Part shown: one piece after another, positions 5,407 through 53,774 of the stretch
How positions within the stretch are numbered: the stretch's first letter is position 1
Layout: every line of letters starts with the position of its first letter
Assembly: GCF_965139275.1 (NCBI RefSeq)
Contig: NZ_CBCSLE010000005.1
Reading direction: 5' to 3' (one strand)
Origin: Corallococcus exiguus
GTDB taxonomy: Bacteria > Myxococcota > Myxococcia > Myxococcales > Myxococcaceae
DNA: 64,000 nucleotides
Notes under the pieces: generated by a model
What the model was told of the DNA's origin: nothing
Seen by the model: only the letters and a program-made list of their open reading frames with translations
The model's database searches: none
Made by a program: the position numbers and the translations under genes

Positions 5407-7365
5407 GTGATTCGCGAGATCCTCAGCGGACTGCTATGGCAGGGCCGGGTGGCCTTGCGCAGCGGCGACGTGCGCGTCTTCGCCGCGCATGGCTACGTGG
5501 ATGAAGGCTACCGGCCTTCGCGCGTGCCATTCCTCTCCGTTGTCGGCCCGCTGGGCTTGTTCCCCGAACCCGAGCGAGAGAACGGCCGCACGGGCGTCGC
5601 CACCTTCCGTGTGCCGGGCCACCTTGTCGGCAGGCCTCGCGCTTCCGCGGACAGCGTGCCGCCCAATGGCTCGCTCAAGCTGCGCCTGGATGGCCGCGCC
5701 ACCGTCACCCTCACGGGGTTGCCGGGCGGCTCGTTTGCTTCCACCGCGACGGGCCCCGCGCTCGCTGACGCCATCAACGCGCGGCTGGCGGATGCGCTCA
5801 CCGGTGGACTCTTCCAGGAGCCCACGGGCGCGCCGCTCACGGACCCGTTGCTGCTGGAGGCGCTCGCTGGCGTCATCGCGCGCTGGGACGTGGAGGGGAG
5901 CCGGCTCGCGATCAGCTCCGACGCGGGCATCCCCTCCATGGAGTTCCGCTCCAGCGTGGAGGTGCTGCCCGTCGCTGGTGGCATCGAGGGCCCTCTGGGC
6001 CTGGAGCCTCCGGAGCGCTCTCAAGAGGGCAGGGTGTTCCTCAGCAAGATCCGCGCGCCCAAGGCCATGGCCATCGACGTGCAGGTGGACCTGTGGGCGG
6101 GCTCGCAGGTGGACCTGGCGTCCATCATGGACACGGTGGCGCTCTCCATCCCCACGCGCGGGCAGCTGGTGCTGCGCCCGTCGCTGCTGGCCGAGGACGT
6201 GCCCGAAGGCGCCACGACGGTCCGCCTGCTGACGCGCGGTGAGCCCACCACGGCTCTGTCCCTGGTGCACCTGGAGGCCAGCGACCAGAACCTGGAGCGC
6301 GCGCGCGGCGGACGCGTGGACCTGACGCCCGGCGCGTCCTTCCTTCCCACCGCCGAGGGCCTGCGCCTGTCCGGCACCGGCACCGCCTCCGTCCTCGTCT
6401 ACCCGATGCCCGCCGTGCCCGACCCCTTCCACGCCGACAATCCGGCCCCGGACGGGCTGGCGCTGTCGGTGGGGCTGCGCGTCGCCGCTGGCGCCGTGGC
6501 CGCGCAGTCGCTGCCGGTGGCCGTGCTGATGGCGCAGGGGCAGCCCGTGCTGCGGCTCATCGTCCGCTACGAGCAGGTGGACACCCGGCTCATGGGCGAG
6601 GTGGTGGCCACCGCGACGCTGGCGCAGGCCACCGGGACGCAGGTCGCGGAGACGCGCTGGCGGCTTCCGGTGGAGCGGCTGGAGGCCGGCGTGGTGCTGC
6701 ACGCGCGGCTGGAGGCGGGGGAGGGCGTGGTGTGGCTGTCGGCGGACGGGGTGCCGCAGCCGCTCCAGGATGCGGAGGCCACGCCCGCGCCGCCCGTCGC
6801 CGCGCCGGGCGTCACCGTCGCCGCGAGCGACATGGTGCTCACGCTGGGGGCGCAGACGGGCACTCCGCTGGACTTCACGGTGGACCACGTGCACCTGGTG
6901 GCGGAGCCCGTGGGGCCGTTGGATCCGGCGCTGCGCCGCTCCGTCACGGCGGCCTCGCGCCTCAAGCCCGGTGACGTGGTGGTGCTGGGCTCGAGCGACG
7001 ACGGCTACCGCGTGGGCAAGCAGCGCTTCCAGGCGCTGGTGCTGGGGCTGGATGGCGACCGCGTGACGCTCAGCCGTCCCGTGGAGGGCGCCTGGGCCCG
7101 GGGCCGCACGCTTGTGTTCCAGGAGGAGTGCTTCTTCTTCCAGACGCAGCTGCGCCGCCGCGACGACCTCTTGAACCACCTGTACCGCTGCTGCGTGGAC
7201 TACCGGGTCTCCGCGCTGATGGACGAGCCGAACGCGCGCAGCACCGCCCGCCTCGTCGAGACGCCGCGGGTGGACCTCATCGCGCGCGGTGCTGCGCGAG
7301 GCGCCAGCGGCCATCCGGGAACATCTGTCACCGAAGTCGATACCGCCAGGCGCGGGACCATCTGA
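5407..7365 (+). CDS. Hypothetical 652-aa protein, first gene of the contractile-injection-system operon
   Basis: Strong GC3 periodicity on the plus strand; the antisense 626-aa ORF is an Arg/His-rich shadow. GTG start with GGAGGG 10 nt upstream. Stop lies 10 nt before the sheath gene RBS. No recognisable family from sequence alone. Confidence 0.6.
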   Translation: MIREILSGLLWQGRVALRSGDVRVFAAHGYVDEGYRPSRVPFLSVVGPLGLFPEPERENGRTGVATFRVPGHLVGRPRASADSVPPNGSLKLRLDGRATVTLTGLPGGSFASTATGPALADAINARLADALTGGLFQEPTGAPLTDPLLLEALAGVIARWDVEGSRLAISSDAGIPSMEFRSSVEVLPVAGGIEGPLGLEPPERSQEGRVFLSKIRAPKAMAIDVQVDLWAGSQVDLASIMDTVALSIPTRGQLVLRPSLLAEDVPEGATTVRLLTRGEPTTALSLVHLEASDQNLERARGGRVDLTPGASFLPTAEGLRLSGTGTASVLVYPMPAVPDPFHADNPAPDGLALSVGLRVAAGAVAAQSLPVAVLMAQGQPVLRLIVRYEQVDTRLMGEVVATATLAQATGTQVAETRWRLPVERLEAGVVLHARLEAGEGVVWLSADGVPQPLQDAEATPAPPVAAPGVTVAASDMVLTLGAQTGTPLDFTVDHVHLVAEPVGPLDPALRRSVTAASRLKPGDVVVLGSSDDGYRVGKQRFQALVLGLDGDRVTLSRPVEGAWARGRTLVFQEECFFFQTQLRRRDDLLNHLYRCCVDYRVSALMDEPNARSTARLVETPRVDLIARGAARGASGHPGTSVTEVDTARRGTI

Positions 7366-7375
7366 AACCAGGAGG

Positions 7376-10266: not shown

Positions 10267-10290
10267 CGTCCCCATTCGAGGAGTGAAGCC

Positions 10291-10782: not shown

Positions 10783-10783
10783 C

Positions 10784-11659
10784 GTGCTCCTGGAACCTCC
10801 CATCCCGGTGCTGCTGCCGCACGGCCTCTTCGACGAGGACGGCCGCTGCCACCGCCAGGGCGAGCTGCGCCCGCTCACCGGCCGCGAGGAGTGGGCGCTG
10901 GCCCAGGCCGGCGAGCGTCCCGGCCCGCGCGCGGTGAGCGGGTGGCTGGCGGCGTGTCTGGGACGGTTGGGGGATTACTCGCGCGTGGACGAGGAGCTGG
11001 CGGCCTGCCTCACGCGCGGAGACCGGCACCACCTGGCGCTGCACCTGCGGGCCCGGATGTACGGGGACCGGGCGACGCTGGTGGCGCGCTGCCCCGCGCC
11101 TGGATGCGAGGCGATGGCGGACGTGGACGTGCGGCTCTCCGCGCTCTCTCCGGAGCGGGTGGACGCGGCGCCGGAGGTGCTCATTGTGGCGCTGCCAGAG
11201 GGACGGGCGGAGGTGCGCGAGCCCACGGGCGAGGACGACGCGCTGCTCGCGGAAGTGCAGGGCACGCGGGAGGAGCGGTCCGCGCTCCTGTGGTCGCGGC
11301 TGGTGGTGGTGGATGGGCAGACGCTGACGCCTTCCGCGTGGCTGGCCCTGCCCGCGCGCTCACGGCACGCGGTGGCGCTGGCGTTGGCGGACGGCACGAG
11401 CGCGCCGGATCTGGGGCTCCTGGCGCGCTGTCCGAAGTGCGCCGCGTGGTTGGAGCTGGAGCTGGATCCGTTCGCACTGCTGGCTCGCGAGCTGCGGGGT
11501 GGGGCGGCGCGATTGGAGACGGAGGTGCACGTGCTGGCCTTCCACTACCACTGGTCGGAGGCGGACATCCTGGCCCTGCCGCGGGCCCGGCGGTGGCGCT
11601 ACCTGGAGCTGCTTCGCAACGAGCTGGAAGGCCGTCCGCTGGTGGATGGCTGGAGCTGA
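10784..11659 (+). CDS. Hypothetical 291-aa CIS protein with two CxxC pairs (CPAPGC ... CPKCAAW); candidate tail terminator/cap or assembly factor
   Basis: GTG start 2 nt after the tube stop; strong GC3. Putative Cys4 zinc ribbon. Size is similar to Afp16/Pvc16-type caps, but homology cannot be confirmed by eye. Confidence 0.5.
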   Translation: MLLEPPIPVLLPHGLFDEDGRCHRQGELRPLTGREEWALAQAGERPGPRAVSGWLAACLGRLGDYSRVDEELAACLTRGDRHHLALHLRARMYGDRATLVARCPAPGCEAMADVDVRLSALSPERVDAAPEVLIVALPEGRAEVREPTGEDDALLAEVQGTREERSALLWSRLVVVDGQTLTPSAWLALPARSRHAVALALADGTSAPDLGLLARCPKCAAWLELELDPFALLARELRGGAARLETEVHVLAFHYHWSEADILALPRARRWRYLELLRNELEGRPLVDGWS

Positions 11660-11677: not shown

Positions 11678-11890
11678 ATGGCCCCACCCCCGGTGCAAGG
11701 ACAGGTCGGACTCACCCGCCGCGAGCTGGAGCGTGAGCTCGCGTGGATGCTGCGCAGCGTGCCGGACAACCCCAAGGAGTTCGTGAAGCTGTTCACCCAG
11801 ACGGTGGTGGCGCTGATGGACAAGAACAACGAAGCCATTGCCCGGAGCCTCGCCCAGCGCGAGCCGCCCGGCGCCCGGGGCAACGGATGA
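11678..11890 (+). CDS. Small 70-aa protein (Afp6/Pvc6-position small protein)
   Basis: Clear GC3 bias. Stop overlaps the next start (ATGA). Confidence 0.5.
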   Translation: MAPPPVQGQVGLTRRELERELAWMLRSVPDNPKEFVKLFTQTVVALMDKNNEAIARSLAQREPPGARGNG

Positions 11891-12625: not shown

Positions 12626-12904
12626 ATGAGCGACCCTTCCTCGCGACACAAGGACCTGCCGACGTACGCGGTGCCGCTGGGGCCGGAGGGCGCCACGGTG
12701 TCGCTGTACGTGCCCCGCGTGGCGCCGAGCGTGCCCACGTCCCTGTTGCACAAGGTGGTGGCGGGGGACCGGTTGGACCTGCTCGCGCAGCGCTACTTCA
12801 GCGACCCGTATCAGGCGTGGCGCATCGTGGACGCCAACCCCACCTTCGAGCCCGAGGCGCTCCTGGAGCCGGGAACGGTGCTGTTCATCCCGGAGAAGCC
12901 CTGA
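12626..12904 (+). CDS. LysM-like peptidoglycan-binding protein (P2 gpX-like)
   Basis: HKVVAGDRLDLLAQRYFSDPYQAWRIVDANPTFEPEALLEPGTVLFIP matches the LysM consensus (Y.V..GDTL..IA..Y......I...N......L..GQ.L.IP). Confidence 0.7.
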   Translation: MSDPSSRHKDLPTYAVPLGPEGATVSLYVPRVAPSVPTSLLHKVVAGDRLDLLAQRYFSDPYQAWRIVDANPTFEPEALLEPGTVLFIPEKP

Positions 12905-14091
12905 TGGCGGATCAGCGCGCGGCGTTCCTCCAGCTGTGGATCGACGGGCAGCCCATGACGGACGCCCGCGGCAGGGTGTCGCGTCTGGAGGTGGACGAGC
13001 GCACCGACGACGCGTCCTCCTTCCACCTGTCCCTGGACATGGCGCCCACGAACTCGGGGGACTGGGACGCGCTGGCGGACGGGCGCTTCGCGCTGCTCAA
13101 GCGCGTCACCATCAGCTTCGGGCTGGGCGCTCCGGACAGCGAGGCGCCGGACGTGCAGGACGTGGTGTTCGACGGGTACATCACCGCGGTGGAGCCGTAC
13201 TTCGGCCCCTCCCGCATGCCGGACTCGTCGCTGGAGGTGTACGGGCTGGACGCGTCGTGCCTGATGCACCTGGAGGAGCGCACGCGCTCGTTCAGCGGGC
13301 TGTCCGACGCGGGCATCGTGCGGCAGCTGTACGGTGAATACGGCTTCGCGCTGGACGTGCAGGAGACTGCGCCCGTGCGCGACCCGGCGCGGGCGGTGGT
13401 GCTCCAGCGCGGCACGGATGCGTCGCTCCTCCGGTGGCTCGCGCGACGCAACGGCTTCGAGGTCTTCGTGGAGCGCAAGCAGGGGCCGGTGGGCGCGGGC
13501 GCCAACGCGGCGCCGGAGAGCGTGGGCCATTTCCACCTGCCCCGGCCGGACGGAGCGAAGCAGCCGGACCTGTCGCTCATTCCTCGCTCCACGCCGACCG
13601 TCATCGAGCTCAAGGCGCGCTGGGAGAGTCACCGCCCCACGGAGCTGCATGGCGAGCACATCGACGAGCGTACGCGGCGGATCCGCTCCGCCACGGTGAC
13701 GGCGCCGCGCTTCCCGCGCATGGGACCCACGAGCCGCGCGGACATCCTGAAGGCGCGCATGGCGGCGGTGCTGCCGAAGCGGCCCCAGACGAAGGCGGTG
13801 GGCCTGCAGTACGTGGACGTGCCGCACGACGTGCCGGAGGTGGAGAACCTGGCGTGGTCGGACTACCGCGAGGCGGACTGGCTCGCGGAGGCGAACGGCA
13901 CGGTGCAGGGCCTGCGCTACGAGCGCATCCTCCGCGCGCGGCGCCCGGTGGGGCTCGTGGGGGCGGGCAAGCTGATGGATGGCACCTGGTACGTGCGCGG
14001 CGCGCGGCACCGCTGGGTGTGGGCGGAGGCGCTGGCCCGCTACGAAGTGGACGTGGACCTGGCGCGCGACGCGCTCAACGGGGTGGCGTGA
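12904..14091 (+). CDS. Phage late-control-D (P2 gpD / gp27-like) baseplate hub protein
   Basis: 395 aa, a size typical of gpD. Operon position between the LysM protein and gp25. Start overlaps the LysM stop (TGATG). Confidence 0.6.
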   Translation: MADQRAAFLQLWIDGQPMTDARGRVSRLEVDERTDDASSFHLSLDMAPTNSGDWDALADGRFALLKRVTISFGLGAPDSEAPDVQDVVFDGYITAVEPYFGPSRMPDSSLEVYGLDASCLMHLEERTRSFSGLSDAGIVRQLYGEYGFALDVQETAPVRDPARAVVLQRGTDASLLRWLARRNGFEVFVERKQGPVGAGANAAPESVGHFHLPRPDGAKQPDLSLIPRSTPTVIELKARWESHRPTELHGEHIDERTRRIRSATVTAPRFPRMGPTSRADILKARMAAVLPKRPQTKAVGLQYVDVPHDVPEVENLAWSDYREADWLAEANGTVQGLRYERILRARRPVGLVGAGKLMDGTWYVRGARHRWVWAEALARYEVDVDLARDALNGVA

Positions 14092-34244: not shown

Positions 34245-34248
34245 CGCG

Positions 34249-40335: not shown

Positions 40336-40413
40336 CCCGCCCCGACTCGACGGACGAGGACAGTGGCCGGTGGCTCCACGGGGAACGGGCCCCGGGCCTG
40401 CGGCCTCGGGAAA

Positions 40414-40434
40414 CCTGTCCGACAGTCGGACAGG
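40414..40434. repeat. Third copy of palindrome CCTGTCCGACAGTCGGACAGG, located between the convergent 3' ends of the two CIS operons; bidirectional terminator candidate
   Basis: Exact 21-bp match to the copies at 20861 and 20930. Flanked by aaa...ttt. Sits in the 209-bp gap between 40335(+ end) and 40545(- end). Confidence 0.65.
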
Positions 40435-42844: not shown

Positions 42845-43369
42845 TCACGGCTGCTGCCGTTGCTGGAAGAGGGCCATGTGGTGCTTCCACAGGGCGCGGT
42901 GCGCATCTTTGACGGTCGTCGCGGCGCGCTGCAATCGCTCGAAGAGGCCACCGTCCTCCGCCTCCTCGCGGAGCTTCGAGACGAACTTCGTCTCCGTCTT
43001 CAGCCCCGCATCCTTGCTCCGCTGGAGCCGCGCCAGGTTGCCCGACTCCCAGGCCTCCAGGTCCAGTTCGCGCGCCAACGTCAGCAGCGTGTCCACCTCC
43101 GCCTCCGTGCGGGTGAAGCGCTCCAGGAACCGCTCCACCGTTCCGTATGTCTTCTTCTCCTCCGGCGCGCCGGCCTCGGTGAGCAACAGGCTCTTGGCCA
43201 CGCCCACGTCCAGCTTGGGGATGCTCCGCAGGGGCGCATCACAGAAGGGACAGGCCGACGGTTCCTGGAGGACGGTCCGCCGGCCTCCGGTCAGGTCCAC
43301 CCGGTTGTGGACGGTGAACGTGGAGCCGCACACGAAGCAGGTGACGGAGGTGGAAGGAGCGACGCGCAT
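42845..43369 (-). CDS. Hypothetical 174-aa protein with N-terminal Cys4 zinc ribbon (CFVCG...CPFC)
   Basis: MRVAPSTSVTCFVCGSTFTVHNRVDL...SACPFCDAPL. Helical C-terminus. 12 nt downstream of the giant gene. Confidence 0.5.
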   Translation of the reverse strand: MRVAPSTSVTCFVCGSTFTVHNRVDLTGGRRTVLQEPSACPFCDAPLRSIPKLDVGVAKSLLLTEAGAPEEKKTYGTVERFLERFTRTEAEVDTLLTLARELDLEAWESGNLARLQRSKDAGLKTETKFVSKLREEAEDGGLFERLQRAATTVKDAHRALWKHHMALFQQRQQP

Positions 43370-43381: not shown

Positions 43382-46300
43382 TCATGGAGGAGGCCAGCGG
43401 GGCGGCAAGAGATCGATGACGCGGCGGCCGAAGCTCTCCGCGTCCGTTTCAATGGGCTGCCGGAAGTACCGGGGGTCTCCCGGCCCGTAGTAGTGGCCGC
43501 CGGAGCCAGGCAGGTTGCGCCACCACCGGCGTGAGAACGGATGCGACTGTCGGCCTATCGAGTACTGGTAGGCCTGATACGCCTGATAGTAGTGACGCGA
43601 CTCATGGACGGCGGTGCCCACCGCGTCGCCCACGTCCAGGTTCTCGTTGATGACGATGACGCCACGCCGGCTCACGGGCGCGAGCCGGCCCTGGTGCGTC
43701 ACGTTGAAGTCCCATTCCATCCATCCGTAGTCCCCAGCCGGCAGGTTCTGGAACTGGACTTGTGGACGGCGCGACCGGGGGATGCCCATTGCGTCCATGG
43801 CCGCGCCCACCGACTTCTTGAGGGCCTGCTGCCGGTCCCGGAGCGACAGCGTGCCGAACGTCGAGGGGTCCAGCTCCGGGATGTCCTCCAGCCCCGCTTG
43901 CAGGTCCCGCATCTGCGCCAGCTCGAAGCGCTTGAACCGGCGGCTGCTCCAGCTGCGAGAGACGGTGATGTCGAAGTCCCCCCAGCCCAGCACATTGCCG
44001 GTGGGACCTATCGTGCGAATGCGCTTCGCGGTCTCGAACGGTTCGATGATCCGGGCGATCTCCCCCGGCTTCACGTTCGGGTCCAGGCTGTGGATGAGCC
44101 CCTTCAGCTGTTTGGGATCGATGTTGTACTGGGCCAGCAGGCCTGGCTTGCGCTTCGTGCCCTTGAGCGCTGACTCCACCTTCTTCAGCACCTTCAGCGT
44201 GGCCCCGACGCGGCCCTTCTTCAGCTCGTCCCTGAAGACACCCATCAGGGCATCGAGCTCCGCGCGGGGGGCCGAACCGTGGGGCATGACCTCCCGGACC
44301 AGCGACATCTTGCGCCACGCGTCCGCGATGCGTTCGACGCGGTCGACGAGCTCCCAGCCCGGCGGAGGCATGGGGGTGATGGGCCCCACGCGCAGCTCGA
44401 TGGAGACCCGCCACTCGTCGATGGCCTTGGTCAGCGCCTCCAGGTGCGCCGGCCCCAGGCCTCTCGCCCGGGCCCAGGCCAGGTCCGACAGCTGCGCTTG
44501 CAGGTCGTCCAGGTTCTTGCGGAGGTTCTCTCCCACCGCAGTGAAGTCCTTGAGCCTGGGGGCGTGCTTGCCGCCCTTCACCTCGACCAGGTGGAGCTTC
44601 GCGCTCGTCGGATCCGCGGCGTGGTCGAACTCGACGATGATTTCATCGATGCCACTGCCTTGCTCCGCGCCCCTGGGCTTGAAGTCCAGCCGCCGGAATC
44701 GCTCCGTCGGCCCCAGCCGCTCGCCGAGCAGCGCCTCCGTGAACGCCAGGGATTTCTGCTTCTCCACCACCTCGCCCGCCTCGGTGGTGATGAAGCCGCG
44801 CGGCTCCCAGCGATTGCCGGAGCGCTTGGACAGGATGAGCTCGATGTATTCCGTCTCACCGCTGGCGCGCGTCACCTCCACCAGCTTGTAGTAGCGGAGC
44901 TCCTTGGGGCGGTACTTGACCTCCTGCCACGCGGGGCCGATCTGCGCCACCGTGTCCGACGGATCCAGCACCAGCGTGGTGCGCGCCCGCTGCGCGTCGG
45001 TGAACACCTGGCGCGGCGCGCTCTTGATGAACGGGTCATCCAGCTCCGGCCCCCCCTTCGAGAACGGCCCCACCTCCGGGTGGTCGGCGTGGAGCACGGT
45101 GTTGGGCCACACGTCGTTGGGCCGGCCTGACTGCCGGATGACCGGCTCCGTGTCCGTCACGGTGAGCACCAGGGCCTTCTTCTTCCCACCTCCGCGCGTC
45201 GTGACCGCCGGCGGCTTCGTTTCCGGAACGACCACCTCCGGTGGCTTCGCCGGGGTGAATTCCATCTCCAGCTGCCTGGCCCCCTCCGCCTCCGGCGGAG
45301 GCACGGGCGGTTTCTTCTTGCTGAACAGCCGCGGAGGCTCATTCAGGTACTGCGGCTTCGAGCGCACGCCCTGGCCGAACTCCGCCATGTCCAGGGGCGT
45401 GAAGGCATCCACCTCCTTCATCCGCTGGCGCAGGTTCTCCAGCGTCTTCTTGCCCTGCCGGATGCGGCGGGTCGCCTCCTCCGGCTCCATGGACACGCCG
45501 CGCTTGCCCTCCAGCGACGTGAGCAGCGACTCCTGCGCATCGATCTCCAGGAGCAGCTTCTTGCGATAGAGCTCGAACTGCTTCTCGATGGGCAGCTTGT
45601 CCCAGTGCCGCAGCGCCCGTTCGTCCAGGGCCTTGATCAGGTCGCGCGTCGCCTTGTCGTGGCGCTGGAGCAGGTGCAGGCCCTCCTCGCCCAGGTCGGA
45701 CAGGTCCGCGCCCGCCTTGACGATGATGGTGGGCTTGCCGCGCCGGAACATCGTGACGGCCTGCGCGGACTTGCTGCCGGTGAGGGCTTCGAAGTCCGCC
45801 TCGGAGATCAGCTCGATGGGCGTGTTCGCGAACGCCTTTCGCTGCGCGGGCGGGATGTGCTCCAGCAGCTCCTTGCGCATGGCGCGCTGGAGCTGCTGCC
45901 GGTCGAAGTCGCCCGACATCTGCTTGAGCAGGCCCTCGTCGAACTCGCGCAGGAACTCCTTCATGTTCCCGGCGGGGTTCTCCGCCTTCCACTTCTTGAA
46001 GAGGGTCAGCCGCTCCTTGGGCGTGCCCCGGAAGTTGAGCAGGTCCTGGGTGCGCGGTGGCACGTGGGGCTTGGAGATGCCGCCCAGCGCGCCCAGCCCT
46101 CCGGCCATCACCGCGCCCGGCGCCGCCTGCAGGGCGGTGCCGGCCAGCACGTTGAAGAGCGCGTTGCCGCCCTTGTAGTTCGCGTCGTTGAGGACGTTGC
46201 CCAGGAACGCGGAGGGCACGGACTGCGCCAGGCCTTCCGCGCCCTGGGCCAGGCCGTGCGCCGTCATCCGCGCCAGCACGCCGCCTTCCTCCGCCATGCG

Positions 46301-49300
46301 CGCCAGGAACCCCAGCTTGAGCAGCTTCGTGCCCATGCCGGCGGTGGCCGCGGCGGTGAGGGCGTCCACCGCGCCCATGCCCGCGTCGGTGGCGGCCTCC
46401 TCCCAGCCGTAGGCGCTGCCCTTCATGGCGGCCTTGGTCACCATCGTCACCGCGGCCGTCGCCACCGCCGTGCCCACCAGCACCGGCGTGCTGGCCATGA
46501 ACGCGCCGAACGCGGCCCAGAACCCCGCGCCCGCGGGCGGGAAGAAGATGCTGACGATGACGCCGATGATGACCACCACCGCCATCACCACCGCGGTGAG
46601 GACCATCACCAGCCGGTCGGTGATGAAGTCCACCTGCTCGCGGTGCATCTGCACCGACTCGTCGGCGTACTCGCCCTGGCGCTGCACGCGCTCGGACTTC
46701 TTCTCCCAGTCGTCCTGCCACTTGCGCAGCCCGTCGGCGGTGTAGTTCTTGTCCCCGGGCTTGGGGCGCATCCGCTCGTGCAGCTCCAGCGCGCTCACCT
46801 CGGCGTCGAGCGCGGACGCCTGGTCCAGCACCAGCTGGTACTCCGAGGACGCCATGCTGTTGGTGGAGCTCGCCTCGAAGTGCACCCGGCGCCAGGCGCG
46901 GTCCGCCTTCTCGCGGGGTGTGACGGGCTCGCCGTAGTCCACCATGTCGAGGATGTCGAAGGCCTCGCGTCCGCTCAGCTCCTCGTCGATGCGCGCGCGG
47001 AAGCGCTCGAAGGGCGTGCGCGTGTCGCCAGGGTCGGCGGGGTGGTCCTTGGCCCACTCCTCGGCCATGGCCTGGATCTCCGCCTTCGACTTCCCGGCGA
47101 AGACCTCCTTGAGCGCGTCCTCGTCCGTGCCCACGCCCTGCACGGCGTACTGAACGATTTCCGCGTCGGTGAGGTAGCCCTTCTGCAGCATCGCCGCGAC
47201 GGCGTCCCGGTCCGCGCCGGACGTGTCCATCAGGACGGCCTGCTCGAAGCTCGCCTGCAGGTGCGTGCCCTCCACGTAGGCGCTGTCGTACTCGGCCGCC
47301 AGCGCCTTCATGTTCGCCATGGCATCGGCCTGGGCCTGGGCCTTCGCCTTGACGTCCACCTCCTTGTGTTCCTTCGCGATGCGGGCCTGGACCTTCTCCG
47401 GGCTCCACTTCTCCAGGAACTCCAGCTCGCTGATGCGGCCCTTGCGGCGGTCCTCCTCGGTGAGCGGGCCTTCGCTGGCGGGCTTGACCTTCGCCTCGTC
47501 CAGGCCGCGCTCGATGTCCATCCGTTCCTGGATGTCCAGGTAGCCGTCGCGGCGCGCGTCGGCGACCTGCCGCTTGCCCTGCGCGGACATGGCGTCGCGG
47601 ATGATCTTGTCGTCCGCGTAGATGATGCTGGTGTGCTCGATGCGGATGCGCGCGGCATCCACCTGGAGTCCCTTGTCGTCGCGCAGGCCCTCGATGAGCT
47701 TGAGGTCCTCGCCCTTCATCTCGTCGTGGAACGCGGCGCTGAGCGCGCTCTCGCCCGCGGTGCGCTGGGTCCAATCCGTGCCGTATTGCTGCTCATACGA
47801 CGCGTCGATGGCCTGGTTGCGCTTGAGCAGCTCCGCGCGGAACGTCTTGGTGTCCCAGCCGTACTGCTGGGCGTCGGCCTCCGTCTCCTTGCGGATGCGG
47901 TCGTAGACGCCCTCCATGGCCTTGCGGTCGGTGCCCAGGCCGAAGAACCACCCGCCGCGCATGGCGCGGTCCATCTCGATGGCGCGCGCGTCCTCGGTGC
48001 GGCCCTCCACCAGGGCGTGCATCTCGTCCGCGTCGTGCGTCGTGCGCGCGCCGCTGCGCAGCTCGTCGTCCATCTGGGCGACGAGGTCCTTGCCGTACTT
48101 CAGCTGGTAGGCCTTCTTGATGGCCTCGATCTGCTCCGGCGTCTTGCCGCGAAGCAGGTTGAAGATGGCGTCCTCGTCCGTGCCCCAGCCGGTCCCGAGG
48201 AAGGTGCCCTCCATGGCGTCGTTCAGCTCGACGGCGGCGGCCTTGGAGGCGTTGCCGGAGAGCAGCGCCTCCGCCTTGTCCCAGTCGTGCGTGGTGGTGC
48301 TGAAGAAGTCGTCCAGCTCGCTCTTGAGCCGCTCGCGCAGGTTCTCGTTGTGCTCCTGCTGGTAGAGGACCTCGATGTAGTGGCCCTGGAGCGGGTTGAG
48401 GTTGGCGAGCGCGTCGAAGATCTTCTTCTCGTCCGTGCCCCACTGGTCCACGCCCTCCCAGACCTTGAGGGAGATGTTGCGAGCGCGGTTGCTGAAGAGG
48501 GGCTCCTGCTGGTCGACGACGGTCTTGAGCCGCTCCAGGTCCGTGGACGCGAGCAGCTCCTTCTCCAGGGCCTCCATGAGCGGCTTGCGCCGCTGGCCGA
48601 TGATTCGCACGGCCAGGCCCTCCGCGAGCGCCTGCACCGCGTCCTTGCCACCCTTGCCGTAGTAGGAGAGCAGGATGGCCTTCTGCTCCTCGCTGAGGGC
48701 GTTGTTCCCCTTGATGGTCTCCGCGTCCAGCTCCTCGCCCTGGCGCAGGCGCACCTCCGCGAGGAACAGCATGTTCTGGTCCAACGACGTCTTGTTCTCC
48801 GCCGCGCGAGCGGTCTCCCACGCGCGGCTCTCGTCGTGGGCGGCCTCCAGCCAGTCGATGATCCACCCGAGCAGCCGGTCCCAGAAGCCGCGCTCGTAGC
48901 CGACCTGCTTCGCGTGCCAGTCGCGGATGACGTCCCGGGCCTCCCTGCCGGCGTCGCGCAGTTCCTGCTGATAGCGCTCCACGCTCTGGTCGATGTCGCG
49001 CTTCGCCTTCGTGACGACGGCGCCAATCTCCTTGCGCCGGTCGTCCATCCACTTCTTGGTGGGGCGGTACGCCTCCGTGGCGGTCTTGAGCTTCACCGGA
49101 TCATCGCCAGCGTCCTTCTTGAGCTCCCACTCGTCCTGGAGGGCGGCGAGCTCGTAGGCGTGCATCTGGTCGCTCGCGGCCTTCGCGAAGGCTTCCTTGA
49201 AGCGCTTGCCGTTCTGGTCATACCGGACGACCCAGTTGCTCACCTTGGTGTCCACGGCCGCGATGAGCGCGTCGCGCTTGCGCCGGGCCTCGGTCAGGTC

Positions 49301-51394
49301 GACGCCGCCCTTGATGGCGGCGGCCTTCGCCTCGGACTGCGCGTCGAGCGACGCGCGCATGCGCGACAGGGAATCAGCGAACGACTTGCCGCCCTCCTCC
49401 AGGCTCGTCTTCGCATCCTCGTGGGCCTTGCTGAGCGTGCCGGTGGTGGCGGCGTGTGAGTCCACCAATTGCTTGCGGCGGGCCTCCACCTTCGCGTCCA
49501 GGTCCTCCTTCTTGATCTGAGCGGCGTCCGCGACGCGCTGGAGCTCCGCGGCGAAGATGGGGCGTTCGGCGGCGATGAGCGCGATGCCCCAGGACGCATC
49601 CAGGCCGCCCGGGACATAGGCCTCGCGGGCCTTCTGGACGGAGGCGTCCGCGTACTTGTCCGGAGCGACGAGCAGCCGAGCCAGCACGTCGCCAATGTCC
49701 ACGCGAGCGAAGTCAGGGACGTTGATGGGCGCGGGGGCGGCCTGTTCGAGGACGGTGATGCCCTTCGCGGGTTCCTTGGGCTGGACCTTCGCCTTCTTCT
49801 GCTTGTCGGCCTCGGCGGTGATCTTCTTCTGGAGACGCGTCCAGTCCTTGAGCTTCTCCGGGTCGGTGGGCTTGGGACCGCCGGGCTTGTAGACGAGGTC
49901 GCCGAGCGGGCCCTTGATGAGCATGTGCCCGCCGTCGTCGCGCACGAGCTGCGCGCCAATCTCCGGCACGTGGCCCAGCGGGCTCTTCTGCAGGTCGGGG
50001 AGTTTGGCCTCCTTGACGTCCAGCTTCCGGTCGCACTTCGCATCCACCAGCGAAGAGGCCTTGCCGGTGGGATCATCCGGGATGGCTGGAAGGTCCTTCG
50101 GCTGCTTCGCCGGGGTGATGGCCTTCTTGCCTTCGTCCTCCAGTTGCTTGAGGCGCGCGGCGCGGACCGCGTTGGGGTCCACGGCGGCCTGGGTGATCTT
50201 GAACGTGTAGCGGGGCGCCGGAGGAAGCTGTGGCTCCGGCACCTGCGCCGTGCTGCTGGCGATGCGGCCCTTCCATGCGGCGACCGGATCCGCGTCCGCG
50301 CTCACCGCTGGCGCAGCGGGGATGGGCCCCGCCGTGACAGGTGCTGCCGGAGCAGGAGGCGGCGCGGGAAGGCTGGCAGGAGGCTCCACCGCCGCGACGG
50401 CACCCGTCGGATCCGGAGCGGTTTCGAGACCGTGCTTGATGCCTTGGACGCCCTGCGCATGGGCCGCGGCCAGCTCCTTCTGCCACTCCATCGCGGCCGG
50501 AGGCACGGGCACCCTGGGGCCTGTGTCGACCGTGGCATCCGTCTGGATGGGAGGAGGCTCCTGGGGCCCTGCGCCAGGGGAGGCCTGACGGACGACGATG
50601 TGGACATCGCTCTGACTCGACAGCGCGGACACCCGCGTGTCGATGCGCGCGGCGTCGTCCATGCCGCCGGGAGCGGTCCCCGTGGGGATGGATGCCGGCG
50701 CGGGAGCTTGCTCAGGCGTTGCCACGTCGCCGCCCGCGCTGGGCGCTTCGACGGTGGTTGCTGCAATGGCATCAGGCGCTGGAGAAGTGCTGCCCCCGAG
50801 TCCCGCTGCTTCCGACTCCTCAGTGACCGTAGAGGGTTCGAGGTCTGAAGCACGGGCCTCGGCGAGCCGCGCGGCGGTGTCTCCGAGTTGCTCAGCGGAA
50901 CCCAGAGGCAGGACGGCCATGCGCGCCGCATCACGCCGTCGAGCATCCTCTTCCTGCTGCTCGAGGGTCGCGGGCTGGGACGCGCCAGCCGCCTGCGCGA
51001 GCCCGGTGTTCGGCTGTGGCGCGAGCCCATGGATGCCCAGCTCCGCCTCGACGGCGCCGGGCGTGGAGAGCAGCGCGACCTCCGGTGGGTGGACCGGGCA
51101 CGGCTCGAAAAGATGCGAGCGCGGACCGCCCAGCGTGCGCCACGCCGGGTCGCTCCACCGGCGCTCCAGGTCGCGAGCGGCATCACGGAGCACAGGCCCG
51201 TGGAGAGCAGGGGCCGCGCCCTTCAGCGACGCGAGCCGCGCCGCCAGCTCACGCGCGGGATTGGACGAGGAAGGGCCCCGGGGAACGACACCCGGAGCAC
51301 GAGGAAGGGCCGCGGAGGACGAGGGAGTGCGCCCGGAGTTCTTCCGGAGCATGGCCTTGGCGGAGGCCTTCGGGCCCTGGTCACGGATGCGCAC
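43382..51394 (-). CDS. Giant 2670-aa protein: disordered Ala/Pro-rich N-terminus, long Lys/Glu-rich helical region, four annexin repeats, multi-helix TM block, C-terminal HExxH motif; candidate CIS effector/toxin (alternatively an oversized tape measure)
   Basis: Annexin repeats: WGTDEKKIFDALANLNPLQGHYIEVLY; GWGTDEDAIFNLLRGKTPEQIEAIKKAYQLKYGKDLVAQMDDELRSG; GLGTDRKAMEGVYDRIRKE; GVGTDEDALKEVFAGKSKAEIQAMAEEW (approx nt 47040-48450). TM block FITDRLVMVLTAVVMAVVVIIGVIVSIFF... (approx 46300-46650). VHESRH (approx 43594-43611). Directly downstream of the ATPase. Confidence 0.7.
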   Translation of the reverse strand: MRIRDQGPKASAKAMLRKNSGRTPSSSAALPRAPGVVPRGPSSSNPARELAARLASLKGAAPALHGPVLRDAARDLERRWSDPAWRTLGGPRSHLFEPCPVHPPEVALLSTPGAVEAELGIHGLAPQPNTGLAQAAGASQPATLEQQEEDARRRDAARMAVLPLGSAEQLGDTAARLAEARASDLEPSTVTEESEAAGLGGSTSPAPDAIAATTVEAPSAGGDVATPEQAPAPASIPTGTAPGGMDDAARIDTRVSALSSQSDVHIVVRQASPGAGPQEPPPIQTDATVDTGPRVPVPPAAMEWQKELAAAHAQGVQGIKHGLETAPDPTGAVAAVEPPASLPAPPPAPAAPVTAGPIPAAPAVSADADPVAAWKGRIASSTAQVPEPQLPPAPRYTFKITQAAVDPNAVRAARLKQLEDEGKKAITPAKQPKDLPAIPDDPTGKASSLVDAKCDRKLDVKEAKLPDLQKSPLGHVPEIGAQLVRDDGGHMLIKGPLGDLVYKPGGPKPTDPEKLKDWTRLQKKITAEADKQKKAKVQPKEPAKGITVLEQAAPAPINVPDFARVDIGDVLARLLVAPDKYADASVQKAREAYVPGGLDASWGIALIAAERPIFAAELQRVADAAQIKKEDLDAKVEARRKQLVDSHAATTGTLSKAHEDAKTSLEEGGKSFADSLSRMRASLDAQSEAKAAAIKGGVDLTEARRKRDALIAAVDTKVSNWVVRYDQNGKRFKEAFAKAASDQMHAYELAALQDEWELKKDAGDDPVKLKTATEAYRPTKKWMDDRRKEIGAVVTKAKRDIDQSVERYQQELRDAGREARDVIRDWHAKQVGYERGFWDRLLGWIIDWLEAAHDESRAWETARAAENKTSLDQNMLFLAEVRLRQGEELDAETIKGNNALSEEQKAILLSYYGKGGKDAVQALAEGLAVRIIGQRRKPLMEALEKELLASTDLERLKTVVDQQEPLFSNRARNISLKVWEGVDQWGTDEKKIFDALANLNPLQGHYIEVLYQQEHNENLRERLKSELDDFFSTTTHDWDKAEALLSGNASKAAAVELNDAMEGTFLGTGWGTDEDAIFNLLRGKTPEQIEAIKKAYQLKYGKDLVAQMDDELRSGARTTHDADEMHALVEGRTEDARAIEMDRAMRGGWFFGLGTDRKAMEGVYDRIRKETEADAQQYGWDTKTFRAELLKRNQAIDASYEQQYGTDWTQRTAGESALSAAFHDEMKGEDLKLIEGLRDDKGLQVDAARIRIEHTSIIYADDKIIRDAMSAQGKRQVADARRDGYLDIQERMDIERGLDEAKVKPASEGPLTEEDRRKGRISELEFLEKWSPEKVQARIAKEHKEVDVKAKAQAQADAMANMKALAAEYDSAYVEGTHLQASFEQAVLMDTSGADRDAVAAMLQKGYLTDAEIVQYAVQGVGTDEDALKEVFAGKSKAEIQAMAEEWAKDHPADPGDTRTPFERFRARIDEELSGREAFDILDMVDYGEPVTPREKADRAWRRVHFEASSTNSMASSEYQLVLDQASALDAEVSALELHERMRPKPGDKNYTADGLRKWQDDWEKKSERVQRQGEYADESVQMHREQVDFITDRLVMVLTAVVMAVVVIIGVIVSIFFPPAGAGFWAAFGAFMASTPVLVGTAVATAAVTMVTKAAMKGSAYGWEEAATDAGMGAVDALTAAATAGMGTKLLKLGFLARMAEEGGVLARMTAHGLAQGAEGLAQSVPSAFLGNVLNDANYKGGNALFNVLAGTALQAAPGAVMAGGLGALGGISKPHVPPRTQDLLNFRGTPKERLTLFKKWKAENPAGNMKEFLREFDEGLLKQMSGDFDRQQLQRAMRKELLEHIPPAQRKAFANTPIELISEADFEALTGSKSAQAVTMFRRGKPTIIVKAGADLSDLGEEGLHLLQRHDKATRDLIKALDERALRHWDKLPIEKQFELYRKKLLLEIDAQESLLTSLEGKRGVSMEPEEATRRIRQGKKTLENLRQRMKEVDAFTPLDMAEFGQGVRSKPQYLNEPPRLFSKKKPPVPPPEAEGARQLEMEFTPAKPPEVVVPETKPPAVTTRGGGKKKALVLTVTDTEPVIRQSGRPNDVWPNTVLHADHPEVGPFSKGGPELDDPFIKSAPRQVFTDAQRARTTLVLDPSDTVAQIGPAWQEVKYRPKELRYYKLVEVTRASGETEYIELILSKRSGNRWEPRGFITTEAGEVVEKQKSLAFTEALLGERLGPTERFRRLDFKPRGAEQGSGIDEIIVEFDHAADPTSAKLHLVEVKGGKHAPRLKDFTAVGENLRKNLDDLQAQLSDLAWARARGLGPAHLEALTKAIDEWRVSIELRVGPITPMPPPGWELVDRVERIADAWRKMSLVREVMPHGSAPRAELDALMGVFRDELKKGRVGATLKVLKKVESALKGTKRKPGLLAQYNIDPKQLKGLIHSLDPNVKPGEIARIIEPFETAKRIRTIGPTGNVLGWGDFDITVSRSWSSRRFKRFELAQMRDLQAGLEDIPELDPSTFGTLSLRDRQQALKKSVGAAMDAMGIPRSRRPQVQFQNLPAGDYGWMEWDFNVTHQGRLAPVSRRGVIVINENLDVGDAVGTAVHESRHYYQAYQAYQYSIGRQSHPFSRRWWRNLPGSGGHYYGPGDPRYFRQPIETDAESFGRRVIDLLPPRWPPP

Positions 51395-51425
51395 GGTCCC
51401 CCCCGCACCATCAGCGCGAGGAACG

Positions 51426-53774
51426 CTAGGTCATCTCCACATCGAGGACCAGCGAGGCCCGGATGGGATGTCCATGACTGCTCCAGAAGCGATGGAGCAG
51501 GTCAAAGTCATAACTCTCCTGGACGCGAGGTGTGAGCTTGCGGCCATCCAGCTCGTGCGGGAGTCCACGTGAGAGCAACCCATGCAACACGCCAAGCAGC
51601 TCATGTTCCTCCTCCGCGCGGTGGGACCACGCGGAGACGATGAGCCCCAGCCGCAGCGCACCGTTCTGGGTGACAGCCAGCCGGTAGAGCGCAAGCGACA
51701 CGGCGGGCCGCTTCCCCGCGAGCGCCTCCCGGGTGGGAGAGCCGTGGAGGATGTGGACCTCCTTGAGGAAGTGTTGTCTGAGCTGCGAGTCCAGTGCCTC
51801 CTGGAACACTTCCGCCACGCGGCGCAAGCGTGTGCCCGCGTCCGAAGGAGCCTCCGCCTCCGGACGCCGCGAGAGCCGGCCCAGCTCGTACAGCTCCAGC
51901 GCGACCGCGCGCTCCAGGTGCTCCTGAGACAGCGGAGCACCCGCCTGTTCGGCGAGGAAGATGGCCTTGAGCGCGGCGTTGCGGATGTCGCCGCCCGCCA
52001 GCCGGTGCCGCTGCGCCAGGCCCGCCAGGTCGAGCGCCCCCGCGCGAGGCACACCCTCCGGAAGCATCAGCTCCCAGATGCGGCGGCGCTCGTCGACCTC
52101 GGGGAAGGGGAACTCGATGCGCGCGTGGAAGCGGCGCAGGAAGGCTTCATCGATGGCCGTCTGCAGATTGGTGGCGAGGATGATCAGCCCGTCGTGACGT
52201 TCGATGCGCTGGAGGAGGAAGCCGACCTCCAGGTTGGCGAAGCGGTCATTGGCGTTGCTGACCTCCGTGCGCGCGGAGAACAGCGAGTCCGCCTCGTCGA
52301 AGAACAGCACGGCGCCGGAGCGCTCGCCGTGGGACAGCACCTCGTCGATGTTCTTCTCCGTCTCACCCACGTACTTGCTGACGAGCCGGGACAGGTCGAT
52401 GACATACAGCGGCCGGCCCACCGCATGGGCGATGACCTCCGCCGCCAGGGTCTTTCCCGTGCCGGAGCGTCCAGAGAAAAGCGCCACCGGGCCCGTGTGC
52501 AACCGGAAGCGGCGAGACAGGCCACGCTCTTCGGCGACGCGGTCGCGCTGGGCCACGTAGAACAGCAGGCGCTCCAAGGCCGCGCGAGTGGTGTCACGCA
52601 CCACGAGGTCCTCGAACGTCCGCGATGTCTCCAGCCGGTAGCCATGGCGCAAGGGCACCTGGACCAGCCGAGATGCAGCGGCACGAAGCGCATCCGCGTC
52701 ACCGCCGGGAGCCGAGTCGAACACGCGGCGGATCTCCTGAAGCCCGCCCCGAAAGCCAGACGCCAGCCGTCCCGCATCCGCCTCCGTCAATGACAGTCCC
52801 CGAACCTGGGCCTCCTCCAGCCACAGGGTCCGCCGCTGGACGAAGCCTGGCGCGGGAGCCTCATGGTGCGGCACGGCGAAAGGCTGCGCGGAGTCCGCGA
52901 GCACCAGGGCCCGCCCGCCAAACCGTTGGCACAACCCAGACAGCGTCTCCGTGACGGAGAGTGCCAGCCCCCGCTCACCACCGGACATGTCCACGGCCAG
53001 CATCGCGCCGCGCACCGACGCCAGACGCCACAGGGCCCGGGCCATGGAAACCGGCTCCGGTGCCCCAGCCCACCGAGCGACAACCAGCGGCACACCGGCT
53101 TCGTCAGCGAGGCTCATCGCCACGCCCAGCCGCTCCCCCTCGCCATGCACGACAGCGAACGTCCCGAGTGACGAAGACGGCAGCACCTCCGGTCCATGCC
53201 ACTCCAGCGAGAGCTCGCCCAGCACGGAGGGCCGGGGCAGCTCCAGCAGGGCCTCGCGGACCTCCGGAGCCAGGTCCACGGGCCGGAGCATGGGAGGAAA
53301 AGCGCCAGCGCCCGTCTGCAACAATCCTCCGCCCACCAGGAGTCCGCTGTCGGTCAGGGACGCCAGCAAGCGCTGCGCGCGAGCAGGCGTGCGTCCCAGG
53401 ACGGTGAGCAGCAGTCGCTCCACGTTCCATCCCTGCGCGGTCTCGTCCTGGAGCACGGCGAACAGGCGCGAATACCGGGGCTCCAGCCACGTCGCGAGCA
53501 GGAGCAATAGCGCCTCCTCCTCCACGGTGTCGACGCGAAGTGAAGCCCGCAGCCGCGCGAAGGGAAGGGGAGGCGAAGTCCCCAGGAGCGGCGTCTCCGC
53601 GAGCGCCGAGCTGAAGGCGAGCTCGGCGGTGGAAGGGCGCACGGTGGTGCGCACGGCATCCCAGCCATTCTCCTGTTCCCCCCGGAGCTTCGAAGCGCGG
53701 GCCTCCTCCAGGTCACACACCTGGACGAGCAGCGCATCCAGACGCCTCAGCGTCTCCCCCCACAACGGATCCAT
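51426..53774 (-). CDS. eCIS-type AAA+ ATPase (Afp15/Pvc15-like, CDC48-family)
   Basis: Walker A GPVALFSGRSGTGKT. Walker B VLFFDEADSLF. SRH ATNLQTAIDEAFLRRF. Start chosen at MDPLWG, with GGAGG 5 nt upstream; the ORF extends to 53867. Confidence 0.8.
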   Translation of the reverse strand: MDPLWGETLRRLDALLVQVCDLEEARASKLRGEQENGWDAVRTTVRPSTAELAFSSALAETPLLGTSPPLPFARLRASLRVDTVEEEALLLLLATWLEPRYSRLFAVLQDETAQGWNVERLLLTVLGRTPARAQRLLASLTDSGLLVGGGLLQTGAGAFPPMLRPVDLAPEVREALLELPRPSVLGELSLEWHGPEVLPSSSLGTFAVVHGEGERLGVAMSLADEAGVPLVVARWAGAPEPVSMARALWRLASVRGAMLAVDMSGGERGLALSVTETLSGLCQRFGGRALVLADSAQPFAVPHHEAPAPGFVQRRTLWLEEAQVRGLSLTEADAGRLASGFRGGLQEIRRVFDSAPGGDADALRAAASRLVQVPLRHGYRLETSRTFEDLVVRDTTRAALERLLFYVAQRDRVAEERGLSRRFRLHTGPVALFSGRSGTGKTLAAEVIAHAVGRPLYVIDLSRLVSKYVGETEKNIDEVLSHGERSGAVLFFDEADSLFSARTEVSNANDRFANLEVGFLLQRIERHDGLIILATNLQTAIDEAFLRRFHARIEFPFPEVDERRRIWELMLPEGVPRAGALDLAGLAQRHRLAGGDIRNAALKAIFLAEQAGAPLSQEHLERAVALELYELGRLSRRPEAEAPSDAGTRLRRVAEVFQEALDSQLRQHFLKEVHILHGSPTREALAGKRPAVSLALYRLAVTQNGALRLGLIVSAWSHRAEEEHELLGVLHGLLSRGLPHELDGRKLTPRVQESYDFDLLHRFWSSHGHPIRASLVLDVEMT

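Follow-up and report, generated by a model that had tools for sequence, protein, structure and literature searches.

The described contractile injection systems (CIS) that resemble the locus presented here most closely in their sheath protein are the CIS of Halogeometricum borinquense (the "archaeal T6SS", for type VI secretion system; clade IIa; PMC11566945) and CIS-Sc of Streptomyces coelicolor (dbeCIS subtype IId; PMC10066040). We analysed a 64,000-nucleotide stretch of contig NZ_CBCSLE010000005.1 (the window) and found that positions 5407-53774 are a chromosomal CIS locus, without prophage genes, of a Corallococcus exiguus-like myxobacterium, a predator living in soil. Every core part is encoded: the sheath, two tubes, a tube initiator, a LysM protein, split gp27 and gp5, gp25, two Baseplate_J proteins, a Tail_P2_I adaptor and a beta-helix fibre. 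The only real surprise of the locus is an end-cap domain fused to the loading ATPase, in a branch of these systems that is poorly studied.

The H. borinquense CIS and the Corallococcus locus have in common two Cis11/Baseplate_J paralogs and Cis12/13-type peripheral baseplate genes, and the archaeal system likewise contains no Afp14 tape measure and no Cis6 plug and keeps its structural genes in two sub-clusters. It differs in its sheath (574 aa versus 775 aa here), in being plasmid-borne and in having a gene for a membrane anchor with six transmembrane (TM) segments, whereas a lectin-fold leader, an ATPase-fused cap and a giant annexin protein are found on the Corallococcus side. Its genes are named cis1-16 and thus include a cis16 cap, which may or may not be separate from cis15. 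CIS-Sc supplied the second-best sheath match, and its Cis16 is the best match, in sequence and in fold, to the C-terminal domain of the Corallococcus ATPase. CIS-Sc is cytoplasmic and works with the membrane protein CisA. Its Afp8 is unsplit, it has a single Cis11 and a separate 225-aa Cis16, and a tail fibre is lacking; the Corallococcus locus, in contrast, splits its spike, encodes two Baseplate_J proteins and combines a P2_I adaptor with a giant fibre, and it contains no separate cap.

More distant are Afp of Serratia entomophila and PVC of Photorhabdus (dbeCIS Ia), with which the locus shares sheath, tube, gp25, Baseplate_J, spike, an Afp15-type ATPase, the cap fold and candidate cargo genes beside the ATPase. 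Unlike this locus, these two systems possess three sheath paralogs (which match our sheath much more weakly, at 1e-38 to 1e-42), an unsplit Afp8, a PAAR protein and the Afp14 tape measure; their Afp13 fibres are adenovirus-like and sit on Afp12, and Afp15 and Afp16 are encoded by separate genes. The thylakoid-anchored tCIS of Anabaena (7B5H/7B5I) matches in its sheath and cap folds and is an example of an eCIS-type gene set that is not extracellular; its Cis19 crown, Cis6 plug, separate Cis16 and anchoring Cis11 extension were not identified in the Corallococcus locus. Finally, the eBAP5/Tail_P2_I class of extracellular CIS (eCIS), as set out in a 2026 catalogue, has the same DUF6519 anchor at the N-terminus of its fibre, directly downstream of the Tail_P2_I gene, with a beta-helix (pectin-lyase-like) C-terminal region (PMC12923769).

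Myxococcota eCIS loci are already known from surveys. The phylum is rich in eCIS fibres, eBAP5 is correlated with Actinobacteriota, and the part of the supplement available to us lists Corallococcus under eBAP3 only (PMC12923769), an entry that probably refers to another Corallococcus locus. C. coralloides has another such locus, of the phage-like protein translocation structure (PLTS)/eCIS kind (Cocor_02848-02867, CP003389 3,522,183-3,558,527). The locus that starts with COCOR_03262, the counterpart of our leader gene, is a second CIS locus of C. coralloides, judging by the distance between locus tags, and it does not appear in the accessible portions of the 2014 and 2021 survey lists.

The cap domain of the ATPase

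The AAA+ ATPase is encoded at the end of the minus-strand module (Table 1). Its start was set at Met32 of the long open reading frame (ORF) from an alignment of homologs, and its nearest solved relatives are AAA+ proteins of the Cdc48/VCP type. We then considered the C-terminal extension, residues 640-782. A profile of these last 143 residues gave S. coelicolor Cis16 as the best match in the PDB, with the motif W..EH.LL in common. The AlphaFold2 model of the extension had a mean predicted local distance difference test (pLDDT) score of 90.5, and in a Foldseek comparison with the PDB the top five matches of this model were all CIS caps: S. coelicolor Cis16 (9GTS_0A, E 2e-6, TM score 0.72), followed by the P. 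luminescens PVC cap (9QGN), the Anabaena tCIS cap (7B5I), Pvc16 (6J0F) and the AlgoCIS cap (7ADZ). A pyocin collar, lambda gpU and Afp16 came after these five. The Pvc16_N match itself is weak in the ATPase of the window; it is present at the C-terminus of 21 of the 26 family members, the best at 7.9e-7. No stand-alone DUF4255/Pvc16_N (PF14065) gene was found in the window, nor among the gene calls of relatives, which cover both ends of the cluster and leave out the middle baseplate and fibre stretch. Sequence profiles and the predicted structure thus place the cap fold in the C-terminal domain of the AAA+ ATPase and not in a separate gene.

In a Cis15-type ATPase that is more distant (33% identity), the protein stops directly behind the AAA lid; therefore the fusion is specific to the clade with at least 45% identity. 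This clade includes Kofleriaceae, Rhodospirillaceae and Acidimicrobiales metagenome-assembled genomes (MAGs) and a Micromonospora. Earlier work had noted that ATPase and DUF4255 genes are often adjacent, head to tail (PMC4122934). We found no published description of an Afp15-Afp16 fusion in the searchable literature, which is no proof of novelty.

In the Micromonospora (L034, GCA_042871425.1) the cap-fused ATPase lies between two large DUF4157 (eCIS_core) proteins (6391-9129 and 15037-19455) and there is no annexin giant. Insertion sequence (rve) genes and a RepSA gene are close by, which hints at mobility and a swapped cargo set.

Gene content and gene order

The G+C content of the window is about 70%, and mechanical ORF lists were mostly noise. 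Genes were therefore chosen by combining third-position GC, the gene calls of near-identical Corallococcus contigs and hidden Markov model (HMM) scans. All 28 ORFs of the locus are intact, including those of the 2535-aa and 2670-aa proteins. The plus strand carries the leader through the spike module and then five or six more genes, and the minus strand carries the HEAT/FGE-sulfatase protein, two proteins without family assignment, the annexin giant and the ATPase.

Table 1. Features of the Corallococcus CIS locus (window coordinates; E-values are from HMM scans).
Feature	Position	Strand	Remarks
Leader g01, 652 aa, clade-specific, ConA-like lectin jelly-roll domain	5407..7365	+	Always directly upstream of sheath gene
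Sheath (Cis2/Afp2-4 type), 775 aa	7376..9703	+	Phage_sheath_1 3e-12, Phage_sheath_1C 6e-10
Tube protein 1 (gp19/Cis1a type), 187 aa	9703..10266	+	Phage_T4_gp19 2.8e-20
Tube protein 2 (gp19/Cis1b type), 163 aa	10291..10782	+	Phage_T4_gp19 2.1e-29
Conserved 291-aa protein with Cys-pair motifs	10784..11659	+	Sub-threshold DUF6760 and T4_baseplate only; 50-58% identity, same position in relatives
Conserved 70-aa protein	11678..11890	+	Called in relatives, 47-63% identity
CIS_tube family (Afp5/Afp7-like tube initiator), 242 aa	11887..12615	+	PF19266 CIS_tube 1e-6, over curated cut-off
LysM/gpX-like baseplate protein, 92 aa	12626..12904	+	Phage_tail_X 7e-4, LysM 1.5e-3, both sub-threshold
gp27/gpD-like baseplate hub, 395 aa, first half of split Afp8	12904..14091	+	Phage_GPD 1.2e-4, below cut-off
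gp25 wedge, 124 aa	14091..14465	+	GPW_gp25 4.1e-14
Baseplate_J paralog 1 (g11, Afp11/Cis11a-like), 1255 aa	14462..18229	+	Baseplate_J 9e-6 at aa 1022-1167, over cut-off
Baseplate_J paralog 2 (g12, Afp11/Cis11-like), 838 aa	18226..20742	+	TIGR02243 putative baseplate assembly protein 2e-43
365-bp insertion between two baseplate genes, like a miniature inverted-repeat transposable element or repetitive extragenic palindrome (MITE/REP)	20747..21111		Absent in Corallococcus L002
Tail_P2_I (gpI/Afp12-like) baseplate protein with Kelch beta-propeller, 1256 aa	21104..24874	+	Tail_P2_I 4.6e-7, over cut-off; Kelch sub-threshold
Giant fibre-like protein, 2535 aa, DUF6519 (eBAP5 anchor) N-terminus and right-handed beta-helix	24871..32478	+	DUF6519 5e-8, Beta_helix 9e-12
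Conserved 113-aa protein	32510..32851	+	115-aa homologs in relatives, 40-45% identity, aligning from residue 49 of the long ORF
Conserved 70-aa protein directly upstream of spike, non-PAAR	32848..33060	+	About 61% identity in relatives; weak MM0924 and DUF6897 only
gp5/gpV spike, 395 aa, second half of split Afp8	33057..34244	+	Phage_base_V 6e-24; Gp5_trimer_C 1.5e-6 (28.8 bits, just under the 30.9-bit cut-off)
Conserved 64-aa helical protein	34249..34443	+	60-65% identity in relatives
Conserved 536-aa helical protein g19, hydrophobic stretch aa 57-102	34412..36022	+	57-58% identity in relatives
Conserved 720-aa protein	36019..38181	+	37-38% identity in myxobacterial relatives, 29% in Micromonospora; no family match
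403-aa Pro/Arg/Glu-rich disordered protein	38178..39389	+	ATGA overlaps at both ends
Conserved 243-aa protein	39386..40117	+	48-49% identity in relatives
73-aa Lys-rich ORF, gene status uncertain	40114..40335	+	ATGA overlap with preceding stop; called in Corallococcus L007
Third copy of 23-nt palindrome	40412..40434		Gap between convergent operons, left inversion junction; kept in Corallococcus L007
HEAT-repeat and FGE-sulfatase-domain protein, 504 aa, last gene of inverted module	40545..42059	-	FGE-sulfatase 4e-8, HEAT_2 4.5e-4
256-aa protein	42059..42829	-	Called at equivalent position in Corallococcus sp. L007/L008
174-aa protein, N-terminal Cys4 zinc-ribbon-like motif	42845..43369	-	Weak Zn-ribbon matches only; identical protein in other Corallococcus
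Giant 2670-aa protein g27, candidate cargo/effector	43382..51394	-	Annexin 5e-21, DUF6782 4e-5
Afp15/Cis15-type AAA+ ATPase, 782 aa, WHD and AAA	51426..53774	-	AAA 1e-24, WHD 3e-8
Predicted Afp16/Cis16-type cap (tail-terminator) domain, ATPase aa 640-782 (143 aa)	51429-51857	-	Pvc16_N, profile and fold matches

In the PDB ranking the sheath matched H. borinquense Cis2 best (9EZM, 8e-89), followed by the S. coelicolor sheaths 8BKY and 8BL4 (2e-81 and 3e-78). The PVC, Afp, tCIS and AlgoCIS sheaths followed at 1e-34 to 1e-42, and the pyocin and T4 sheaths were far weaker. The alignment of the Corallococcus sheath with the 574-aa archaeal Cis2 is confined to residues 5-149 and 483-770; the variable outer domain is enlarged by about 180 residues, and the sheaths of relatives are similarly long (768-799 aa). 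An identical copy of tube protein 2 is present in many Corallococcus assemblies. The Phage_tail_X match, which is marginal in the window, is clean in the LysM/gpX ortholog of relative L009, and the same holds for the Phage_GPD match in the hub ortholog of relative L010. The sole solved match of g12 is the S. coelicolor Cis11 Baseplate-J protein (9GTP_1K, 2e-6). A long ORF at 13979-18229 (1416 aa) was rejected as a single gene, as it really comprises gp25 and the 1255-aa Baseplate_J protein. The spike is 67-68% identical in relatives, and an exact look-up of its sequence returned no record.

DUF6519 is the eBAP5 baseplate anchor of eCIS fibres, typically found downstream of Tail_P2_I and often followed by beta-helix C-termini (PMC12923769). 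Because the 2535-aa protein has this anchor downstream of Tail_P2_I together with a beta-helix, we refer to it as a fibre; the DUF6519 match covers its first ~50 residues only, and the protein is 41-44% identical in relatives. At permissive thresholds nothing new was found in the Tail_P2_I protein, the 1255-aa Baseplate_J protein, the HEAT protein or the 2670-aa giant.

Two gp19 tubes with a CIS_tube protein, a single-chain phage-type sheath, the baseplate core and an Afp15-type ATPase place the locus in the Afp/PVC-like superfamily, the cap (Afp16, DUF4255) being present as a domain and not as a gene. In the dbeCIS definitions of Chen et al. 2019, afp11 is duplicated in subtypes IIa and IIc, afp8 is split into gp27 and gp5 ORFs in IIa, IIb and IIc, afp12/13 are divergent in IIa and IIb, and afp14 is generally absent from lineage II (PMC6899500). 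The window shows a split gp27/gp5 (~19 kb apart), two Afp11 and Afp12/13, and it has no Afp14. Thus, by gene content, the locus belongs to lineage II of the superfamily with the signature of subtype IIa. The sole mismatch concerns the PAAR protein (Afp10), which is expected in IIa, IIc and IId (PMC6899500): PAAR_motif matched no ORF, the small genes beside the spike included.

The sequence-only reading had proposed a complete Afp/PVC-like CIS of a divergent lineage, marked by the long sheath and the 652-aa leader, and both points stand: the leader gave no family match, and the listed components from sheath through spike and ATPase were recovered by the HMM scans, which added the CIS_tube protein. 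It had also seen neither a prophage backbone nor a canonical T6SS. Consistent with this, integrase, capsid, terminase, portal, holin and endolysin had no match in the cluster or its flanks in HMM scans of the 64-kb window, TssB/C/K/L/M and ClpV had no match in any ORF, and the flanks hold housekeeping genes. On the other hand, the gene order that it called non-canonical is the ordinary IIa pattern, because the window shows all four published IIa features.

The convergent two-operon layout was likewise seen correctly, but it is not a design feature. Relatives that are 44-58% identical keep the 5' half of the locus collinear. As to the 3' half, a Haliangiales MAG and a JGI metagenome contig carry it as one co-directional run: fibre, 115 aa, 67 aa, spike, 65 aa, 532 aa, 754 aa, 406 aa, 239 aa and a small ORF, followed by the ATPase, a giant of 2554-3060 aa, a 200-277-aa protein and the HEAT protein. 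As relatives (45-55% identity) carry the co-directional operon, the ATPase-to-HEAT module is inverted in the Corallococcus lineage. Repeats common to the two inversion junctions, inverted or direct, were 9-mers only and not meaningful. In a Rhodospirillaceae MAG and another MAG the ATPase is divergent and lies upstream of the leader; its position is thus variable in the clade.

The locus is well retained in the genus. The ORFs are intact across at least 10 Corallococcus species, the leader is 78-91% and the ATPase 87-99% identical across many of these, both half-loci keep their gene order in the assemblies examined, and start/stop overlaps (ATGA or GTGA) are kept at many gene junctions. In addition, a metagenome contig is 98% identical to the window across 20 kb.

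The annexin protein and its module

The 2670-aa protein g27 has a disordered low-complexity N-terminus. Three annexin repeats come next, then a block of three adjacent, strongly hydrophobic windows (aa 1588-1645), and the variable C-terminus holds an HESRH metallopeptidase-like (HExxH) motif inside the DUF6782-like region. In relatives L011 and L012 the gene after the ATPase encodes another giant (3060 and 2554 aa); residues 365-1910 of g27 share 29% identity with these giants, and its C-terminal 760 residues do not align with them. Such a combination of conserved core and variable C-terminus is in keeping with a polymorphic cargo protein. Among the eukaryote-like effector domains associated with eCIS, annexin is already listed (PMC8213781).

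HEAT proteins occur at the equivalent position in relatives. The FGE-sulfatase (formylglycine-generating-enzyme-like) domain of the 504-aa protein is partial. For the 256-aa protein no homolog was detectable in distant relatives; a role as chaperone or immunity protein is possible.

Other conserved genes, the repeat element and the flanks

A Corallococcus exiguus protein matches the leader with 98% identity, and COCOR_03262 of C. coralloides DSM 2259 does so with 94%. The leader family is rare (68 clusters among 1.84 billion representatives) and occurs in many Corallococcus species, Archangium, Kofleriaceae and Haliangiales MAGs and two "proteobacterial" MAGs.

No convincing tape measure was found, and an Afp14-like match is absent from the locus. 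The helical protein g19 may be regarded as a weak candidate; its PHROG matches to tape measure and baseplate hub families are weak (E ~1e-3) and composition-prone.

The 403-aa gene was not called in the GenBank Corallococcus assembly examined, probably owing to its atypical codon-position GC pattern. The ORF is intact in Corallococcus L007, with 52 substitutions and zero indels, and homologs with a conserved N-terminus are called at 406 and 451 aa in relatives L011 and L012. Both ends of the protein are conserved, and its N-terminus is matched at the Micromonospora locus. Of a 524-aa ORF that starts at 37815, only the portion from 38178 onward is the gene. The 73-aa ORF that closes the plus-strand operon had no detectable homolog in distant relatives, which have unrelated small ORFs at that position.

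The insertion between g12 and the Tail_P2_I gene is flanked by 8-bp direct repeats ATGAGCCC; inside it the 23-nt palindrome AACCTGTCCGACAGTCGGACAGG occurs twice, in 69-nt tandem units, and a search with the palindrome gave 6 matches where 0 were expected. In Corallococcus L002, which has no insertion, the P2_I ATG overlaps the upstream stop. The insertion keeps this ATG and supplies a GGAGGGG Shine-Dalgarno-like sequence for the downstream gene. A 122-aa ORF at 20739-21107 was discarded as spurious, being produced by the repeat-bearing insertion.

The flanking genes were assigned by HMM to a PAS histidine kinase, DUF1622, an AMP-binding enzyme, flavin reductase, superoxide dismutase, a Ser/Thr kinase, a sigma factor, an aminotransferase and polysaccharide synthesis. 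The histidine kinase (at least three PAS domains) and the small DUF1622 membrane protein lie at 2236-5232 on the minus strand, directly upstream of the leader and divergent from it, in all Corallococcus contigs examined; they may be regulators of the locus. In relative L009 (metagenome) a sigma-54 enhancer-binding activator is encoded at 6581-7966, just upstream of the leader gene. Despite this activator, no TGGCAC-N5-TTGC match was found in the window, and a sigma-54 promoter was not retained as a candidate. Scanning the intervening DNA of the convergent operons for promoters and terminators gave nothing convincing, and tRNA and Rfam scans of the window had no matches.

Discussion

The probable explanation for the locus as a whole is a lineage II CIS with a cap-fused ATPase that is loaded at its distal end, extracellular firing being the least certain part. 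According to this model the baseplate would nucleate tube and sheath polymerisation in the cytoplasm, and a hexamer of the ATPase-cap fusion would dock on the distal tube/sheath end via its cap domains. In this position it could feed cargo that has a disordered N-terminus into the lumen of the tube, and it would terminate and stabilise the particle. As cargo, the adjacent annexin/TM/HExxH protein would be the best candidate; the giant Afp18 toxin is the analogous case and a precedent for cargo of ~2500 aa. Lysis of the producer would release the particle, the giant fibre and the Kelch and lectin-like modules would bind the target surface, and sheath contraction would drive the gp5 spike and the cargo into prey or a eukaryotic cell.

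We lean towards an extracellular mode of action like that of Afp, PVC, MAC and AlgoCIS, to which the eBAP5 fibre, the Kelch and lectin-like modules and the annexin cargo candidate point. The sequence-only reading had gone further and taken the gene set to define extracellular systems. This does not hold, as the nearest solved sheaths come from a membrane-anchored system (9EZM) and a cytoplasmic one (8BKY/8BL4) with the same type of gene set. An eCIS gene set alone does not tell extracellular from membrane-anchored or cytoplasmic CIS, and the mode of action is not readable from gene content because two relatives with such a set are non-extracellular. The same reading had called the giant gene effector-like. 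A role as effector is plausible, but the annexin/TM core, conserved in two relatives, suggests that g27 is not a freely swapped cargo gene.

Several points weigh against the model. The closest structurally characterised relatives are not extracellular, the haloarchaeal CIS being membrane-anchored and the Streptomyces CIS cytoplasmic (PMC11566945, PMC10066040). HMM and PHROG scans of the locus found no lysis cassette, in addition to the missing PAAR protein and tape measure. The TM block and conserved core of g27 could equally fit a membrane anchor, and g27 is not adjacent to the ATPase in the Rhodospirillaceae MAG or Micromonospora. The IIa-like assignment is one of gene content and best matches, not of a phylogeny with dbeCIS references. 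We found no experimental precedent in the literature for a fused ATPase on every particle. Finally, the functional steps are all inferred, and the system is known here from its genes alone.

Could the same machine act from within the cell? It would then be either attached to the membrane, like a T6SS, or cytoplasmic, firing outward in predation or inward for developmental or stress lysis. We regard this as possible, if on the unlikely side. The two best sheath matches belong to a membrane-anchored, contact-dependent clade IIa system (H. borinquense Cis2) and to a cytoplasmic one (S. coelicolor Cis2), and the archaeal Cis11, 12 and 13 are proposed to contact the membrane. By analogy, the large Baseplate_J proteins, the P2_I protein, the DUF6519 giant and/or the TM block of g27 could attach the particle to the inner membrane; g27 has three adjacent hydrophobic windows, phospholipid-binding annexin repeats and a core conserved in two relatives. 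Contact-dependent prey killing and programmed lysis are both part of myxobacterial life, and the missing lysis cassette also fits. Set against this, an eBAP5-type fibre with a huge beta-helix downstream of Tail_P2_I is a catalogued hallmark of target-binding fibres, and g27 is missing from the ATPase neighbourhood in two relatives. Moreover, a Gram-negative envelope needs a trans-envelope anchor, and the locus encodes none; judged by domain content only, neither the archaeal six-TM anchor nor a CisA-type adaptor of Streptomyces has a homolog among the conserved genes.

It is very unlikely that the locus is a decaying or silent remnant that makes no particles. The 365-bp element did break the translational coupling of two baseplate genes, an inversion separated the ATPase module from the structural operon, and promoter scans yielded no promoter evidence. 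Nevertheless, all ORFs are intact, the insertion preserves the P2_I ATG and adds a Shine-Dalgarno-like sequence, ATGA or GTGA overlaps remain at many junctions, many Corallococcus species retain the leader and the ATPase, and the assemblies examined preserve the order of genes in both halves. Tail-like genes are common to phages, tailocins and T6SS, so that a defective prophage, an R-type tailocin or a canonical T6SS could be envisaged, but this is hardly tenable here. Integrase, capsid, terminase, portal, holin and endolysin genes and tRNAs are missing from the 64 kb, as are the TssB/TssC sheath, TssJLM, TssK and ClpV of a T6SS. The single Phage_sheath_1 sheath is nearest to CIS sheaths, far from those of pyocin and T4, and the AAA+ ATPase of the Afp15 type, CIS_tube, the DUF6519 anchor and the Pvc16_N-type cap fold are Afp/PVC-like markers.

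Superfamily membership and the IIa-type order are known, and what sets the clade apart is the cap fused to the ATPase, together with clade-specific accessory genes; the eCIS-type set, the odd order and the convergent operons are already described or incidental. The PVC studies have yet to settle in what way ATPases of the Afp15/Pvc15 type bind to the particle and load its cargo (PMC11495950, PMC9054023). One doubtful but attractive idea is that in this clade the AAA+ ATPase is a permanent structural "powered cap", with six subunits held on the distal tube end by their fused Cis16-like domains, a natural Rosetta-stone fusion. If this is true, the fusion would show that ATPases of the Afp15 type work at the site of the cap in all CIS and thread cargo in an unfolded state (here the 290-kDa annexin/TM/metallopeptidase protein) into the lumen from the distal end. 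In a bolder version the machine would be cell-anchored and would serve contact-dependent myxobacterial predation or developmental lysis. The locus adds an uncharacterised injection system to a predatory, developmentally lysing myxobacterium, and a clade that spans Myxococcota, an alphaproteobacterial MAG and Actinomycetota, with the cap covalently attached to the ATPase, makes a testable prediction: that the ATPase works at the distal end of the tube.

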